From the NCBI RefSeq assembly GCF_030013595.1, contig NZ_CP122768.1: DNA of 64,000 nucleotides, one strand, 5' to 3'. The notes below the pieces were generated by a model that saw only the letters and a list, made by a program, of their open reading frames with translations, searched no databases and was not told the origin of the DNA. This DNA is from Escherichia coli (GTDB lineage: Bacteria; Pseudomonadota; Gammaproteobacteria; Enterobacterales; Enterobacteriaceae). The position numbers and the translations under genes are program-made. This document shows, piece by piece, positions 1-57,332 of the stretch. Within the stretch, counting starts at the first letter, position 1. Each line of letters opens with the position of its first letter.

Positions 1-5435
<5,435 letters not shown>

Positions 5436-8495: not shown

Positions 8496-8867
8496 ATGAC
8501 CCTACGCAAGATTCTGGCACTCACCTGCCTGCTGTTGCCGATGATGGCTTCCGCACATCAGTTCGAAACCGGTCAGCGAGTGCCGCCGATTGGCATTACC
8601 GATCGGGGCGAGTTGGTGCTTGATAAAGATCAGTTTAGCTACAAAACCTGGAACAGCGCGCAGTTAGTGGGAAAAGTGCGGGTACTGCAACATATTGCTG
8701 GTCGCACCTCTGCAAAAGAGAAAAACGCGACGCTGATTGAAGCGATTAAATCAGCGAAGTTACCGCACGATCGTTACCAGACCACCACCATTGTTAACAC
8801 CGACGACGCGATTCCGGGTTCAGGGATGTTTGTGCGCAGCAGTCTGGAGAGTAATAAAAAGCGGTAA
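8496..8867 (+). pseudogene. ytfJ: ytfJ, truncated: reading frame runs into the IS1 terminal repeat and stops (123 codons versus an expected ~184)
   Basis: MTLRKILALTCLLLPMMASAHQFETGQRVPPIG...SSLESNKK then R-stop, where the final codons (cgg taa) come from the IS1 end ggtaatgactcc; expected C-terminal third absent. Confidence 0.8.
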
Positions 8868-8877
8868 TGACTCCAAC

Positions 8878-9381
8878 TTACTGATAGTGTTTTATGTTCA
8901 GATAATGCCCGATGACCTTGTCATGCAGCTCCACCGATTTTGAGAACGACAGTGACTTCCGTCCCAGCCTTGCCAGATGTTGTCTCAGATTCAGGTTATG
9001 CCGCTCAATGCGCTGAGTATAACGCTTGCTGATAACGTGCAGCTTTCCCTTCAGGCGTGATTCATACAGCGGCCAGCCATCCGTCATCCATACCACGACC
9101 TCAAAGGCCGACAGCAGGCTCAGAAGACGCTCCAGTGTGGCCAGAGTGCGTTCACCGAAGACGTGCGCCACAACCGTCCTCCGCATCCTGTCATACGCGT
9201 AAAACAGCCAGCGCTGACGTGATTTAGCACCGACGTAGCCCCACTGTTCGTCCATTTCAGCGCAGACAATCACATCACTGCCCGGTTGTATGCGCGAGGT
9301 TACCGACTGCGGCCTGAGTTTTTTAAGTGGCGGAAAATCGTGTTGAGGCCAACGCCAATAATGCGTGCACTGGCGCGACAT
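8878..9381 (-). CDS. insB: IS1 transposase InsB (167 aa reading frame; expressed as InsAB' by frameshifting)
   Basis: [64 protein letters not shown]... overlapping insA in -1 frame. Confidence 0.93.
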
Positions 9382-9575
9382 CCGACGCCATTCATGGCCA
9401 TATCAATGATTTTCTGGTGCGTACCGGGCTGAGAGGCGGCGTAAGTGAACTGTAGTTGCCATGTTTTACGGCAGTGAGAGCAGAGATAGCGCTGATGTCC
9501 GGCGGTGCTTTTGCCGTTACGCACCACCCCGTCAGTAGCTGAACAGGAGGGACAGCTGATAGAAACAGAAGCCAC
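9300..9575 (-). CDS. insA: IS1 protein InsA (91 aa)
   Basis: [43 protein letters not shown]... zinc-finger/HTH InsA. Confidence 0.93.
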
Positions 9576-9789
9576 TGGAGCACCTCAAAAACACCATCAT
9601 ACACTAAATCAGTAAGTTGGCAGCATCACCATAGAAGTAAACTATCAAAAAACGCTCATTATTAAAATATAACTTATTAGCAATTGAATTTTTGCACTTT
9701 AAATACAATCTCTTTTTATTTATAACTTTTTAGGTTGGGAGAAATCAGGATGGCAGAATCAGGAAATACACTGTTTCTGCCATCTGAAT

Positions 9790-10530
9790 TTAGTAAATAG
9801 ACACTCTGAACCCCGGATTCAGGAACGACTCGCGCGGAGTGTAATCCAGCGGTTTACCCTGCCAGTCGTGAACGTGCGCTCCGGCAGCTGCGGCCACAGC
9901 ATGTCCAGCGGCGGTGTCCCAAATATTCGTTGGTCCGAAGCGCGGGTACAGCTGCGCCTGTCCTTCCGCCACCAGGCAGAATTTCAGCGAAGAGCCGATG
10001 GACGTGGTCTGATGTTCGCCAAGCTGTTGCAGATACTCTTTCAGCTCCGCATCTGCATGGGAACGGCTGATAACCACCAGCGGCGGGCGCGCATCACGGA
10101 CCTGAATCTGCTTGCGCACGCCGCACTCTTCTTTCCACGCTTTGCCTTCTGCCGCGCTGTACATTACGTTCATTACCGGCGCATACACCACACCTAAAAT
10201 CGGTTTGCCGTGGTCGATGAGCGCAATGTTAACGGTAAATTCGCCATTACGTTTAATAAACTCTTTAGTACCATCCAGCGGATCTACCAGCCAGTAACGC
10301 TGCCAGTGCTGACGGACTTCCCAACCGGGAGGATCTTCTTCAGAAAGGACCGGAATATCCGGTGTCAGCGTACGTAAACCGTCCATGATAACGGTGTGTG
10401 CGGCAATATCCGCTGCCGTTACCGGAGAATTGTCCGCTTTGCTGACGACGTCCATCGGTTTCGTCCCGTCGTAGACCTGCATAATGGCATCGCCTGCATT
10501 CCGTGCAAGCTGGCATACTTGATCTAACAT
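9790..10530 (-). CDS. cysQ: 3'(2'),5'-bisphosphate nucleotidase CysQ, 246 aa
   Basis: ORF track 246 aa [22 protein letters not shown]...; inositol-monophosphatase family motifs (DPLDGT, WDTAAG). Confidence 0.93.
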
Positions 10531-10719: not shown

Positions 10720-12663
10720 ATGATTAAGTTTAGCGCAACGCTCCTGGCCACGCTGATTGCCGCCAGTGTGAATGCAGCGACGGTCGATCTGCGTATCATG
10801 GAAACCACTGATCTGCATAGCAACATGATGGATTTCGATTATTACAAAGACACCGCCACGGAAAAATTCGGACTGGTACGTACCGCAAGCCTGATTAACG
10901 ATGCCCGCAATGAAGTGAAAAACAGCGTACTGGTGGATAACGGCGATTTGATTCAGGGGAGTCCGCTTGCAGATTACATGTCGGCGAAAGGTTTAAAAGC
11001 AGGTGATATTCACCCGGTCTATAAGGCATTAAATACGCTGGACTATACCGTCGGCACGCTTGGCAACCACGAGTTTAACTACGGTCTGGATTACCTGAAA
11101 AATGCGCTGGCGGGAGCGAAATTCCCTTATGTAAATGCCAACGTCATTGACGCCAGAACCAAACAGCCAATGTTTACACCGTATTTAATTAAAAACACCG
11201 AAGTGGTCGATAAAGACGGAAAAAAACAGACGCTGAAGATTGGCTATATTGGCGTCGTGCCGCCGCAAATCATGGGCTGGGATAAAGCTAATTTATCCGG
11301 GAAAGTGACGGTGAATGATATTACCGAAACCGTGCGCAAATACGTGCCTGAAATGCGCGAGAAAGGTGCCGATGTCGTTGTCGTTCTGGCGCATTCCGGG
11401 CTGTCTGCCGATCCGTATAAAGTGATGGCGGAAAACTCAGTTTATTACCTCAGTGAAATTCCGGGCGTTAACGCCATTATGTTTGGCCATGCTCACGCCG
11501 TTTTCCCAGGTAAAGATTTTGCTGATATCGAAGGGGCTGATATCGCGAAAGGCACGCTGAATGGTGTTCCGGCGGTAATGCCAGGCATGTGGGGCGATCA
11601 TCTTGGTGTGGTCGACTTACAACTCAGTAATGACAGCGGTAAATGGCAGGTGACGCAGGCGAAAGCGGAAGCACGGCCGATTTACGACATCGCGAATAAA
11701 AAATCCCTCGCGGCGGAAGACAGCAAGCTGGTAGAAACACTCAAAGCCGATCACGATGCCACACGCCAGTTCGTCAGCAAGCCAATCGGTAAATCCGCCG
11801 ACAATATGTATAGCTATCTGGCGCTAGTGCAAGACGATCCGACCGTGCAGGTGGTGAACAACGCGCAAAAAGCGTATGTCGAGCATTACATTCAGGGCGA
11901 TCCGGATCTGGCAAAACTGCCGGTGCTTTCAGCTGCCGCACCGTTTAAAGTTGGTGGTCGCAAAAATGACCCGGCAAGCTATGTGGAGGTGGAAAAAGGC
12001 CAGTTGACCTTCCGTAATGCCGCCGATCTTTATCTCTATCCCAATACGCTGATTGTGGTGAAAGCCAGCGGTAAAGAGGTGAAAGAGTGGCTGGAGTGCT
12101 CCGCCGGACAGTTTAACCAGATTGATCCTAACAGCACGAAACCACAGTCACTCATCAACTGGGATGGTTTCCGCACCTATAACTTTGATGTGATTGATGG
12201 TGTGAATTATCAGATTGATGTTACCCAGCCTGCCCGTTATGACGGCGAGTGCCAGATGGTTAATGCCAATGCGGAAAGGATTAAGAACCTGACCTTTAAT
12301 GGCAAGCCGATTGATCCGAACGCCATGTTCCTCGTTGCCACCAATAACTATCGCGCTTACGGCGGCAAATTTGCCGGTACGGGCGACAGCCATATCGCTT
12401 TTGCTTCACCGGATGAGAACCGCTCGGTGCTGGCAGCGTGGATTGCTGATGAGTCGAAACGTGCGGGGGAAATTCACCCGGCGGCAGATAACAACTGGCG
12501 TTTAGCACCAATAGCTGGCGATAAGAAACTGGATATCCGTTTCGAAACCTCTCCATCAGATAAAGCCGCGGCGTTTATTAAAGAGAAAGGGCAATATCCG
12601 ATGAATAAAGTCGCGACCGATGATATCGGGTTTGCGATTTATCAGGTGGATTTGAGTAAGTAA
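10720..12663 (+). CDS. cpdB: 2',3'-cyclic-nucleotide 2'-phosphodiesterase / 3'-nucleotidase CpdB (647 aa from MIKFSATLL)
   Basis: ORF 10711-12663; signal peptide, metallophosphoesterase motifs (GNHEFN) and 5'-nucleotidase C-terminal domain. Confidence 0.92.
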
Positions 12664-19195: not shown

Positions 19196-19329
19196 ATGAA
19201 GGGTCAACCAGAAGCCAGCTAAGGAGCGTCTCTTTGATGACCTTACGTCTGGCTTCCAGTGCCTGGGGGGAAACCATACTGATGTGTTGACATCCTCCAC
19301 GCCCTGAAGGACGTGGATCCCTGCTACGT

Positions 19330-20538
19330 TCAGGCTGTCGCCTGAATCATTTCGGTGGGTTCCTGCTTCAACGAGCGGCCTGACTGCACCATCTCTCCAC
19401 AGGCAAGAACGGCGTGCCCCGCCGCTAAAATGTTACGAGCGCCATTTACATCGGCGTTCGCTGTATATCCACATACCTGGCATCTGAATTTAATTTGTGA
19501 CAGGCGATTTTCTTTCGCTGTATGACCACAGCACGCGCAACGCTGGCTTGTGTACGCTGGCGGAACAGCAAGCACCTGACCGCCACGCCAGAGCTGCTTG
19601 TACTCAAGCTGGCGGCGCATTTCATACCAGCCCTGATCCAGTATCGAACGGTTTAAACCTGATTTTGCCCGGACATTGCGCCGCGGCTGGCTGACCGTAC
19701 CCGCTGCTGACTTTGACATGTTGCTGACCTTCAAATCCTCAATGACTATCATTGCGTGGTTTTTGCTGACGGTCGTTGTGACTTTGTGAAGGTAGTCCCT
19801 GCGGATATTTGCGATACGGGAATGCAGTCGCTGTATTTTGCGTTTCTGCTTCTGCCAGTTATTGCTGAATTTGACCTTGCGGCTTAACTGTCGCTGAAGT
19901 CTCGCCAGCTTCTTCTGTTTTTTCTGAAAACTGTTTACAGGCTCAAAGACTGTGCCATCTGACAGCGTGGCGAGTTTAACCACGCCAGCATCCAGCCCGA
20001 CCATTGATGCTGAAGGATGAACCGGAGTTGATACTTCACTTTCTGTCTGAATACTGATGTACCACTTACCGCAGGACTGGCTGACCGTGACATTTTTCAC
20101 AACACCCGTGACCTGACGGCTATTCCGGTAGCGCATCCAGCCCAGTTTCGGCAGAAAAATACGGCTGTTTTCCTGATAGAGCTTAACGCCCTACGGGTAG
20201 CGGAATGCATCATTCTGTCCCCGCTTTTTGAATCGGGGAAAAGCAGCCCGCTTCTGGAAGAAGTTTTTGTAAGCCCGCTCAAGGTCTTTCAGTGACTGTT
20301 GCAATGGCTGTGACGGGGCATCTTTAAGCCATTGCGTTTCAGTGGCATTTTTCCACTCAACCAGCCAGGAAGCCATTTTCCCGTAAGGGATGTATTTATT
20401 ACCGGCCTCATGATTCTCATTCTGAAGCGCCAGAGCACGATTGAAAACGAAACGACATGCGCCTGCGAAGCGCCTCATTTCACGCTCCTGTTGACCACCG
20501 GGTCTTAACTGGAATTTAAATGCCTGTCGTCGTTTCAC
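19330..20538 (-). pseudogene. tnpB: tnpB (IS605 OrfB / TnpB RNA-guided nuclease family), ~402 codons interrupted by one in-frame TAG at 20191-20193
   Basis: N-terminal ORF (GTG start) VKRRQAFKFQLRPGGQQE...AFRYP, then TAG, then in the same frame GVKLYQENSRIFLPKLGW-MRYRNSRQVTGVV...; C-terminal part has RuvC-like region and CxxC...CxxC zinc finger ([39 protein letters not shown]). Confidence 0.8.
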
Positions 20539-20545
20539 AGGTCAA

Positions 20546-21000
20546 ATGATACTTTGGTCTGTGAAAAAAGAAACCTATATCCGGCGTGGAAGGTATTGTG
20601 TTTTCCTGATGCATGTTCACCTGGTCTTTGTCCCAAATACCGACGCCAGATTTTTGACCATGACGCGACAGAAAAACTACGCACTTACTTTTCAAATGTA
20701 TGTGCTGATTTTGAAGCTGAACTGGTTGAAATGGATGGCGAACCAGATCACGTCCATTTGTTAATTAAATATCCTCCCAAACTGGCGATATCCAGTCTGG
20801 TAAACAGCCTCAAAGGCGTATCGGGTAGGTTACTGCGACGAGATCGACCAGATATTGCAGTCAGGTATTACTACAAAGGCGTTTTGTGGAGTCCTGGCTA
20901 TTTTGCCAGTAGCTGTGGAGGTGCGCCAATATCCGCCATCCGTCAATCCATTGAACAACAGCAAACACCTGGTCAGGTGGAAAACCGCGCCGTATATCCC
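20546..21000 (+). pseudogene. tnpA: tnpA (IS200/IS605 Y1 HuH transposase), frameshifted; 3' limit uncertain
   Basis: Frame 1 MILWSVKKETYIRRGRYCVFLMHVHLVF, then a 1-nt frame change in a T-run (~20620-20630) into CPKYRRQIFDHDATEK...DHVHLLIKYPP (HuH motif)...[16 protein letters not shown]; a Ser occupies the position where family members have the catalytic Tyr. Confidence 0.7.
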
Positions 21001-21357
21001 CGCCCTGAAGGACGGGGTTTTACGGCACACCGGATAAACCAGGCCAAGCGTATGCTGGTTGATCAAATAATATCCCCCAAGCGCAGCAATATTAATATAC
21101 ACCTGCAATGGGTCGATATCTGGCTTAAAAATATTGTGTTTCTTCCCTTCATCCAATAAGGATTCCATTAACTGCAAGTGCGCATGATTAATTTCTAAGA
21201 GACGCTGTGATTTTACATAATGCACACCTTTACTTTGGTTTTCACTATGCACAATTTTTAAAAACCAAGGATTAGCAATATAATATATCCTAGGTAAAAT
21301 CGATGATTTTTTCAATGGCTTTTTGTGGCTGGTTAACCTGCTGATTAACAAACGCAC
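20830..21357 (-). CDS. Hypothetical ORF (175 codons) starting in the low-GC islet and reading into the IS element end; possibly a ytfA-like gene remnant
   Basis: ORF track 175 aa [17 protein letters not shown]...; roughly the first 108 codons lie outside the IS hairpin at ~21017, the rest is antisense to tnpA. No recognisable domain by eye. Confidence 0.3.
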
Positions 21358-38959: not shown

Positions 38960-39680
38960 CAGCTATAGACAAATAAATATCCTCCGGCATAGCCGGAGGT
39001 TTTTCAAATGCGCCTGTAAGGCTCTGTTACCAGCCGCGCCCTAACAGGCGCATACGATCTGACATTTGCATTCAACTTCGTTACTTACGGCCCGTAAACG
39101 GGCTGCCCGGATATGGAATCGATAACTGCTCCCCCATTTTATCCTCTTCAAGCTGGTGCTTTATGTAGTCCTGTATCTTCGCCGTGTTCTTACCCACCGT
39201 ATCGACATAGTACCCTCGGCACCAGAACTCCCTGTTTCTGTATTTGAATTTCAAATCCCCAAACTGCTCGTAAAGCATCAGACTGCTTTTCCCTTTCAGA
39301 TATCCCATAAAGCCGGATACGCTCATTTTGGGTGGGATTTCCACAAGCATATGGATATGATCTGCGCAGCACTCTGCTTCCAGAATCCGTACGCTTTTCC
39401 ACTCACACAGCTTTCTCAAAATACTGCCTATCGCCCTACGCTTCTCTCCGTAAAACGCCAGTCTTCGGTATTTCGGCGCAAAAACTATGTGATATTTACA
39501 GTTCCAGCGGGTGTGCGCTAAGCTCTTTTCGTCCCCCATTGGGACCCCCTTTTGATTTCTTGTTTGACACTTGCAGTTGCCAGACCGCAAGGTGTTTTAA
39601 CAAATCAAAAGGGGTTTTAATAACTGGCTCAAAGCTGAAAGCTTTCCGGAACCCCCAGCCTAGCTGGGGGTTTTCTGTGC
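38960..39680 (-). mobile_element. IS200: IS200-type insertion sequence (single tnpA, ~0.7 kb); boundaries approximate
   Basis: tnpA reading frame with IS200-type protein sequence; hairpins near both ends (cccccagcctagctggggg at 39651-39669; cctccggcatagccggagg at ~38969-38991); lies between the rlmB terminator and the yjfI start. Confidence 0.7.
39081..39539 (-). CDS. tnpA: IS200 Y1 (HuH) transposase TnpA, 152 aa from MGDEKSLAHTRWNCKYHIVFAPKYRR
   Basis: ORF 39081-39590; HuH motif HIHMLVEIPP, conserved PKYRR and C-terminal Tyr region (KIQDYIKHQ). Confidence 0.88.
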   Translation of the reverse strand: MGDEKSLAHTRWNCKYHIVFAPKYRRLAFYGEKRRAIGSILRKLCEWKSVRILEAECCADHIHMLVEIPPKMSVSGFMGYLKGKSSLMLYEQFGDLKFKYRNREFWCRGYYVDTVGKNTAKIQDYIKHQLEEDKMGEQLSIPYPGSPFTGRK

Positions 39681-57175: not shown

Positions 57176-57332
57176 TTAATCTTCGTCTTTCGAACCGCTA
57201 CTGCCTTGGCTGCCTTCACTCACCTTAGTCACTTACTTTTGTAAGCTCCCAAGGATTCGTTCAGTTGCCGCCTTGTCGCAATTCGAAATACTGCGATTGG
57301 GTGGTCTGTGCTTTGCAGCACTTTTCAAATTT

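Follow-up and report, generated by a model that had tools for sequence, protein, structure and literature searches.

Loss of DNA beside a transposable element is a long-known, textbook form of transposon-caused deletion, and the allele described here is a new instance of it. The classic IS1 deletions of the gal region are reportedly those of Reif and Saedler (1975), and Turlan and Chandler (1995, EMBO J) are said to have treated the replicative deletions made by IS1. Going by its title, a study by Wan et al. (2023) reportedly deals with large losses of chromosomal DNA linked to IS1 around nfsB in clinical Escherichia coli, and would resemble the present case as an IS1-linked chromosomal loss in natural isolates. 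The nfsB deletions, however, are said to be large and selected by nitrofurantoin, whereas the deletion examined here measures 1.24 kb and has no evident selective driver.

Adjacent deletions start exactly at the terminus of the element and are described as typical for IS1 and Tn9 in sections 5.2.1-5.2.2 of PMC9330008. Within the chromosome, the IS1 movement seen in recent assays was replicative only (PMC12428005). In the LTEE, all 14 of the 14 duplication-free events that combined an IS with a deletion consisted of an earlier simple insertion followed by an adjacent deletion, the element there being IS150 and not IS1 (PMC11708052).

The window, a 64,000-nucleotide stretch of E. coli DNA (contig NZ_CP122768.1, assembly GCF_030013595.1), carries an IS1 between a truncated ytfJ and DNA that natively lies upstream of ytfI. 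As in the classic adjacent deletions, as set out in section 5.2.1 of PMC9330008, the loss starts at an IS1 terminus, the IS1 is intact, no duplication is present and the scale is that of kilobases; there is no structural difference from that class, and transposase dependence is presumed for the window allele. The IS150 events of the Lenski lines likewise pair an IS and a deletion with no duplication, but unlike that time series for an element of the IS3 family (PMC11708052), the window provides one end-point genome and a near-identical relative. At the same locus, strain XJ5.2 (NZ_CP074354.1) has an IS1 in the same orientation, again with no duplication and with adjacent DNA missing. Unlike the window, XJ5.2 has endpoints at 2438-3288 of the K-12 locus, an IS1 isoform 93.4% identical to that of the window and an intact ytfJ, and it represents an independent event.

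Structure of the IS1 copy and of the deletion

The order of genes in the window follows K-12 (tamB-msrA-paeA(ytfL)-ytfK-ytfJ-ytfI-cysQ-cpdB onward) at about 97-98% identity. A first-pass annotation of this DNA had described a complete 768-bp IS1 with intact insA and insB, a ytfJ cut at about codon 122 with its frame ending inside the element, some 160 bp of AT-rich DNA between IS1 and cysQ, 9-bp flanks that do not form a direct repeat, and the absence of ytfI. Mapping against an intact ytfJ-ytfI-cysQ locus bears out this description and makes its approximate figures exact (Table 1).

Table 1. Features of the altered interval between ytfJ and cysQ, in window coordinates
Feature	Position	Strand	Description
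ytfJ, truncated	8496..8867	plus	122 native codons + Arg
Left 9-bp flank	8854..8862		ATAAAAAGC; native ytfJ sequence (K-12 locus L001, 2155-2163)
IS1, complete	8863..9630	minus (transposase genes)	768 bp; sequence mapping, Pfam and NCBIfam profiles
IS1 right-hand inverted repeat	8863..8885		insB-distal end; abuts ytfJ
insB' frame	8878..9381	minus	167-aa ORF; DDE_Tnp_IS1 domain
insA	9300..9575	minus	91 aa; GTG start
Programmed -1 frameshift (slippery) motif	9318..9326	minus	TTAAAAAAC; IS position 305
IS1 left-hand inverted repeat	9608..9630
Right 9-bp flank	9631..9639		ATAGAAGTA; native, begins 53 bp upstream of ytfI start (L001, 3405-3413)
ytfI-islet remnant	9631..9789		159 bp, 27.7% GC; between IS1 and the cysQ stop
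cysQ, intact	9790..10530	minus	246 aa; right-hand boundary, outside the event

The element has the length, inverted repeats, frameshift fusion and transposase profiles of the IS1 family. Its termini, GGTAATGACTCCAACTTACTGAT and GGTGATGCTGCCAACTTACTGAT, agree at 22 of the first 30 positions, i.e. they are imperfect inverted repeats of about 23 bp. Conceptual translation through the -1 frameshift at the A6C motif fuses insA and insB' into a stop-free InsAB' of 232 residues, which exceeds the cut-offs of three Pfam models (PF03811, PF12759 and PF03400, with the domains Zn_ribbon_InsA, HTH_Tnp_IS1 and DDE_Tnp_IS1) and scores 242.8 bits against the NCBIfam model transpos_IS1 (NF033558, cut-off 100). 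As read from the sequence, the frameshift site is functional-looking. Scanning for promoters and terminators gave a promoter-like site at the left end of IS1 only (consensus scan, 9623..9596, minus strand), starting within the left-hand inverted repeat and running past it, and the count was not above that of shuffled sequences. The first-pass annotation had also raised the matter of further IS1 copies and of the displaced segment; within the window there is no second IS1, and the deleted segment was not found elsewhere in it.

The endpoints of the deletion are placed at single-base precision: the left flank stops at L001:2163 of the K-12 locus and native sequence restarts at L001:3405, with 1,241 bp missing relative to K-12 and 1,240 bp relative to E. 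coli HCP5S3_I2. Codons 123-184 of ytfJ, the spacer that follows, the entire ytfI (939 bp) and 52 bp ahead of the ytfI start codon are gone, while the cysQ coding sequence and the adjoining 159 bp downstream of it are unchanged. Both breakpoints coincide exactly with the IS1 termini and the IS1 itself is whole, as expected of an adjacent deletion.

The two 9-bp flanks are identical at five of nine positions. Each runs on unbroken in the reference at its own site, the distance between the two sites being 1,241 bp in K-12 and 1,240 bp in HCP5S3_I2, and the flanks are therefore not a decayed duplication. An 8- or 9-bp duplication, which would have pointed back to a simple insertion, was absent from both IS1 junctions after these had been corrected to the base. 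The IS1 of the window is not in the simple-insertion state, and the missing duplication has no bearing on its membership of the IS1 family.

Within ytfJ, 367 native bases remain from the start at 8496 (122 codons plus one base), and the IS1 end contributes codon 123 (cgg) and the TAA stop at 8865-8867. Intact YtfJ, a signal-peptide protein with no known function, has 184 residues, of which 62 are lost. The truncated protein keeps its signal peptide and positions 2-100 of the 160-position Pfam domain YtfJ_HI0045, and it is probably inactive because positions 101-160 of this single domain (37% of it) are removed. No exact match to the truncated YtfJ of 123 residues was present in a collection of 15 billion proteins.

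Nearest relative, genome survey and IS1 isoform

The nearest relative of the window, E. coli HCP5S3_I2 from pig faeces in the UK (NZ_CM149870.1, L013), aligns with it gap-free over 48,769 bases, with 14 mismatches (99.97% identity). At this locus HCP5S3_I2 is free of IS1 and keeps a full ytfJ of 184 aa, the ytfI region and all of the 1,240 bp. Because so close a relative has the intact locus free of IS1, the window allele is derived and recent, not ancestral.

The allele was sought among 5,426 complete genomes of E. coli and, by exact scans of the junctions, in metagenome contigs. Neither the left junction (ytfJ to IS1) nor the right junction (IS1 to the DNA upstream of ytfI) occurs in any of the 5,426 genomes, and exact scans of the metagenome contigs returned zero matches for each. 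A synthetic junction representing the same deletion with no IS was covered to at least 80% in one of the 5,426 genomes, that of FAM21845 (L005), which carries a different deletion, likewise free of any IS, that joins part of ytfJ to part of ytfI; the window deletion itself was found without its IS1 in none. Relatives with the same short ytfJ and no ytfI but also no IS1, which would have made the arrangement ancestral, are thus missing from all 5,426 genomes. A precursor, i.e. an IS1 with its duplication at either junction, was likewise found in none of the genomes or metagenome contigs, and such a state may be transient. Within the data queried, the allele is apparently private to the window genome and could serve as a lineage marker for a pig-associated clone.

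The IS1 isoform shares only 93-97% identity with the copies at the comparator loci, and it is rare overall, with at least 99% identity in 150 of 9,595 matching records. Among the matches listed, all 40 of the 40 copies with 100% identity come from pig E. coli, on plasmids as well as chromosomes, their hosts including UMNF18, O139:H1, O141:H4 and strains with ETEC names. In some hosts the isoform matches at about 20 places per chromosome. The pig hosts of these copies fit the pig source of HCP5S3_I2, and the presence of the isoform on plasmids as well as chromosomes suggests plasmid-borne spread within pig-associated lineages. A Shigella origin, which the IS1 might have led one to suspect, is ruled out by the 99.97% identity to a pig E. 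coli and by the pig-strain isoform.

Formation of the allele

The allele probably arose in two steps, a simple insertion of IS1 and then an adjacent deletion that the element made by intramolecular replicative transposition. Starting from a K-12-type arrangement of ytfJ, ytfI islet and cysQ, an IS1 of the pig-associated isoform would have integrated at one or the other of today's junctions, with the very AT-rich DNA upstream of ytfI our guess for the likelier first site. The IS1 would then have transposed replicatively within the molecule to a nearby site, in an in-cis configuration, such that one IS1 end was joined to the new target and the 1,240 bp between were released as a non-replicating circle and lost. 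Such a course would end in a single IS1 that has unrelated native DNA on its two sides and lacks a duplication. We infer the order of these events, and a deletion step mediated by transposase and not by RecA.

Other IS1 copies at the ytfJ-cpdB locus act as controls and argue for an adjacent deletion. Three strains have an IS1 at three different sites in cpdB, each with a perfect 9-bp duplication and no deletion (L008, L009, L010), and two have an IS1 in ytfI, again with no deletion, with a perfect 9-bp duplication in one (L011) and an 8-bp duplication in the other (L003). In XJ5.2 (L012), conversely, the IS1 in ytfI lacks a duplication and stands next to an 851-bp deletion within that gene. 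Every one of the five deletion-free copies is thus duplicated at its target, while both duplication-free copies, those of XJ5.2 and the window (1,240-1,241 bp missing), carry a deletion. The completeness of the IS1, with its functional-looking frameshift site, and an isoform that is multi-copy in its hosts speak for the same course. L011 and L012 had the appearance of a before-and-after pair, which is ruled out: L012 is independent of L011 because its junction differs by 1 bp and its IS1 isoform is a different one. Against an order of insertion and then deletion stands the lack of a single-insertion precursor in the 5,426 complete genomes and the metagenome contigs.

The first-pass annotation had read the junction as an adjacent deletion or a recombination between two IS1 copies, and not as a simple insertion. 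The present results support that reading, and one sequence fits both mechanisms, the final sequence being the same as the product of recombination between two direct copies. For the second mechanism, two IS1 copies in the same orientation would have inserted independently at the two junctions, each with a 9-bp duplication, and RecA recombination would have removed one copy together with the intervening 1.24 kb. This would yield exactly the structure of the window, recombination between identical ISs is a frequent cause of missing duplications (PMC11708052), the locus draws IS1, as the independent insertions in ytfI and cpdB of other strains attest, and in some hosts the chromosome has about 20 matches to the isoform. 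We nevertheless regard it as somewhat unlikely. It needs three events where insertion and adjacent deletion need two, among them two independent hits in the same orientation within 1.24 kb, and neither single insertion is seen in the genomes and contigs surveyed. Further, if local IS1 movement is replicative (PMC12428005), a nearby hop gives the deletion directly and the recombination of two copies collapses into the adjacent deletion.

A single concerted, duplication-free transposition, in which for example the IS ends attack separate targets, could have integrated the IS1 and deleted the 1.24 kb at once. Some IS movements with large rearrangements, such as those of IS5 in E. coli C, are argued to involve no duplication and no detectable precursor (PMC11708052), and no precursor allele was found here either, although for a private and recent allele absence from databases is weak evidence. 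In the LTEE, earlier time points split every case into two steps (PMC11708052), and no demonstration of this route specific to IS1 was found; its occurrence here is improbable.

It is very improbable that the allele is an assembly artefact, in which the strain would really have the 1.24-kb segment between two IS1 copies, or a lone simple insertion, and the assembler collapsed the repeat. IS copies are classic points of collapse and the allele occurs nowhere else in the data searched, but both junctions are clean to the base, the surrounding 48.8 kb align gap-free at 99.97% with an independent genome, and a collapse would have to remove unique sequence precisely between two repeats, a sequence that has no other place in the window. 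Lastly, although ytfI is natively missing from 70% of complete E. coli genomes, an ancestral arrangement in which the lineage never had ytfI or a full ytfJ and IS1 simply inserted is refuted by the intact locus of HCP5S3_I2 and the lack of an IS-free junction among the 5,426 genomes, in keeping with the missing duplication at the IS1 and with the 159-bp islet and short ytfJ of the window, where ytfI-less strains have no islet and a full ytfJ overlapping cysQ.

The ytfI islet and other features of the window

Presence of ytfI varies among E. coli: the gene occurs in 1,622 of the 5,426 complete genomes (30%), and its absence alone is unremarkable because the remaining 70% natively go without it. 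In ytfI-less strains such as Nissle 1917 (L004), ytfJ is full-length and reaches into the 3' end of cysQ, leaving no room for an islet, whereas in ytfI-positive strains about 1.2 kb separate the ytfJ stop from the cysQ stop, at 34% GC compared with 52% for the whole window. The loss of ytfI in the window is secondary, because 159 bp of the islet persist and the closest relative keeps the gene. No Pfam or NCBIfam model matched YtfI. In HCP5S3_I2, an A7 run close to the 5' end of ytfI is 1 bp short and the annotation calls the gene frameshifted; ytfI is a non-core, dispensable islet gene that was frameshifted in the lineage before the deletion.

The biological consequence of the deletion is expected to be small, as it affects a dispensable, already frameshifted ytfI and a ytfJ without known function. 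The allele is a clean natural case in which IS1 has worn down an islet of horizontal origin and cut into the neighboring core gene, and a near-identical "before" genome is at hand. Segments inserted in particular strains and bound by H-NS in K-12 are illustrated with ytfI in PMC4720273, and the legend to S10 Fig of that paper has H-NS binding at ytfI reaching cpdB, cysQ, ytfJ and ytfK. By inference from K-12, removal of the islet might alter the H-NS silencing of these four genes.

Across E. coli the DNA between ytfJ and cysQ is highly variable, as Nissle 1917, FAM21845 and XJ5.2 illustrate. The IS1 sites of the three unrelated ytfI-less strains with insertions in cpdB (L008-L010) all lie in a stretch of about 220 bp in the 5' part of that gene (equivalent to ~10900-11300 of the window), and the 5' part of cpdB may be a local hotspot of IS1 insertion.

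Elsewhere in the window, the spacer of the second and third tRNA-Gly(GCC) genes (57176-57332) measures 157 bp compared with about 36 bp in K-12; some 116 bp of it (57178-57293) have no K-12 counterpart, and ARAGORN found no fourth tRNA there. An IS200/IS605-family element at 19287-21032, with tnpA and with tnpB/insQ split into ORFs of 115 and 268 aa, sits inside a TetR-family pseudogene beside ytfB; it is not in K-12 but is present in HCP5S3_I2, whose annotation marks the two genes of the element as pseudogenes. Between yjfI and rlmB lies an IS200-like element of about 703 bp (38978-39680), with a single minus-strand ORF and flanking hairpins. Because this element is absent from both K-12 and HCP5S3_I2 (empty site at ~39441-39449 of L013), it is a second IS gain private to the strain.
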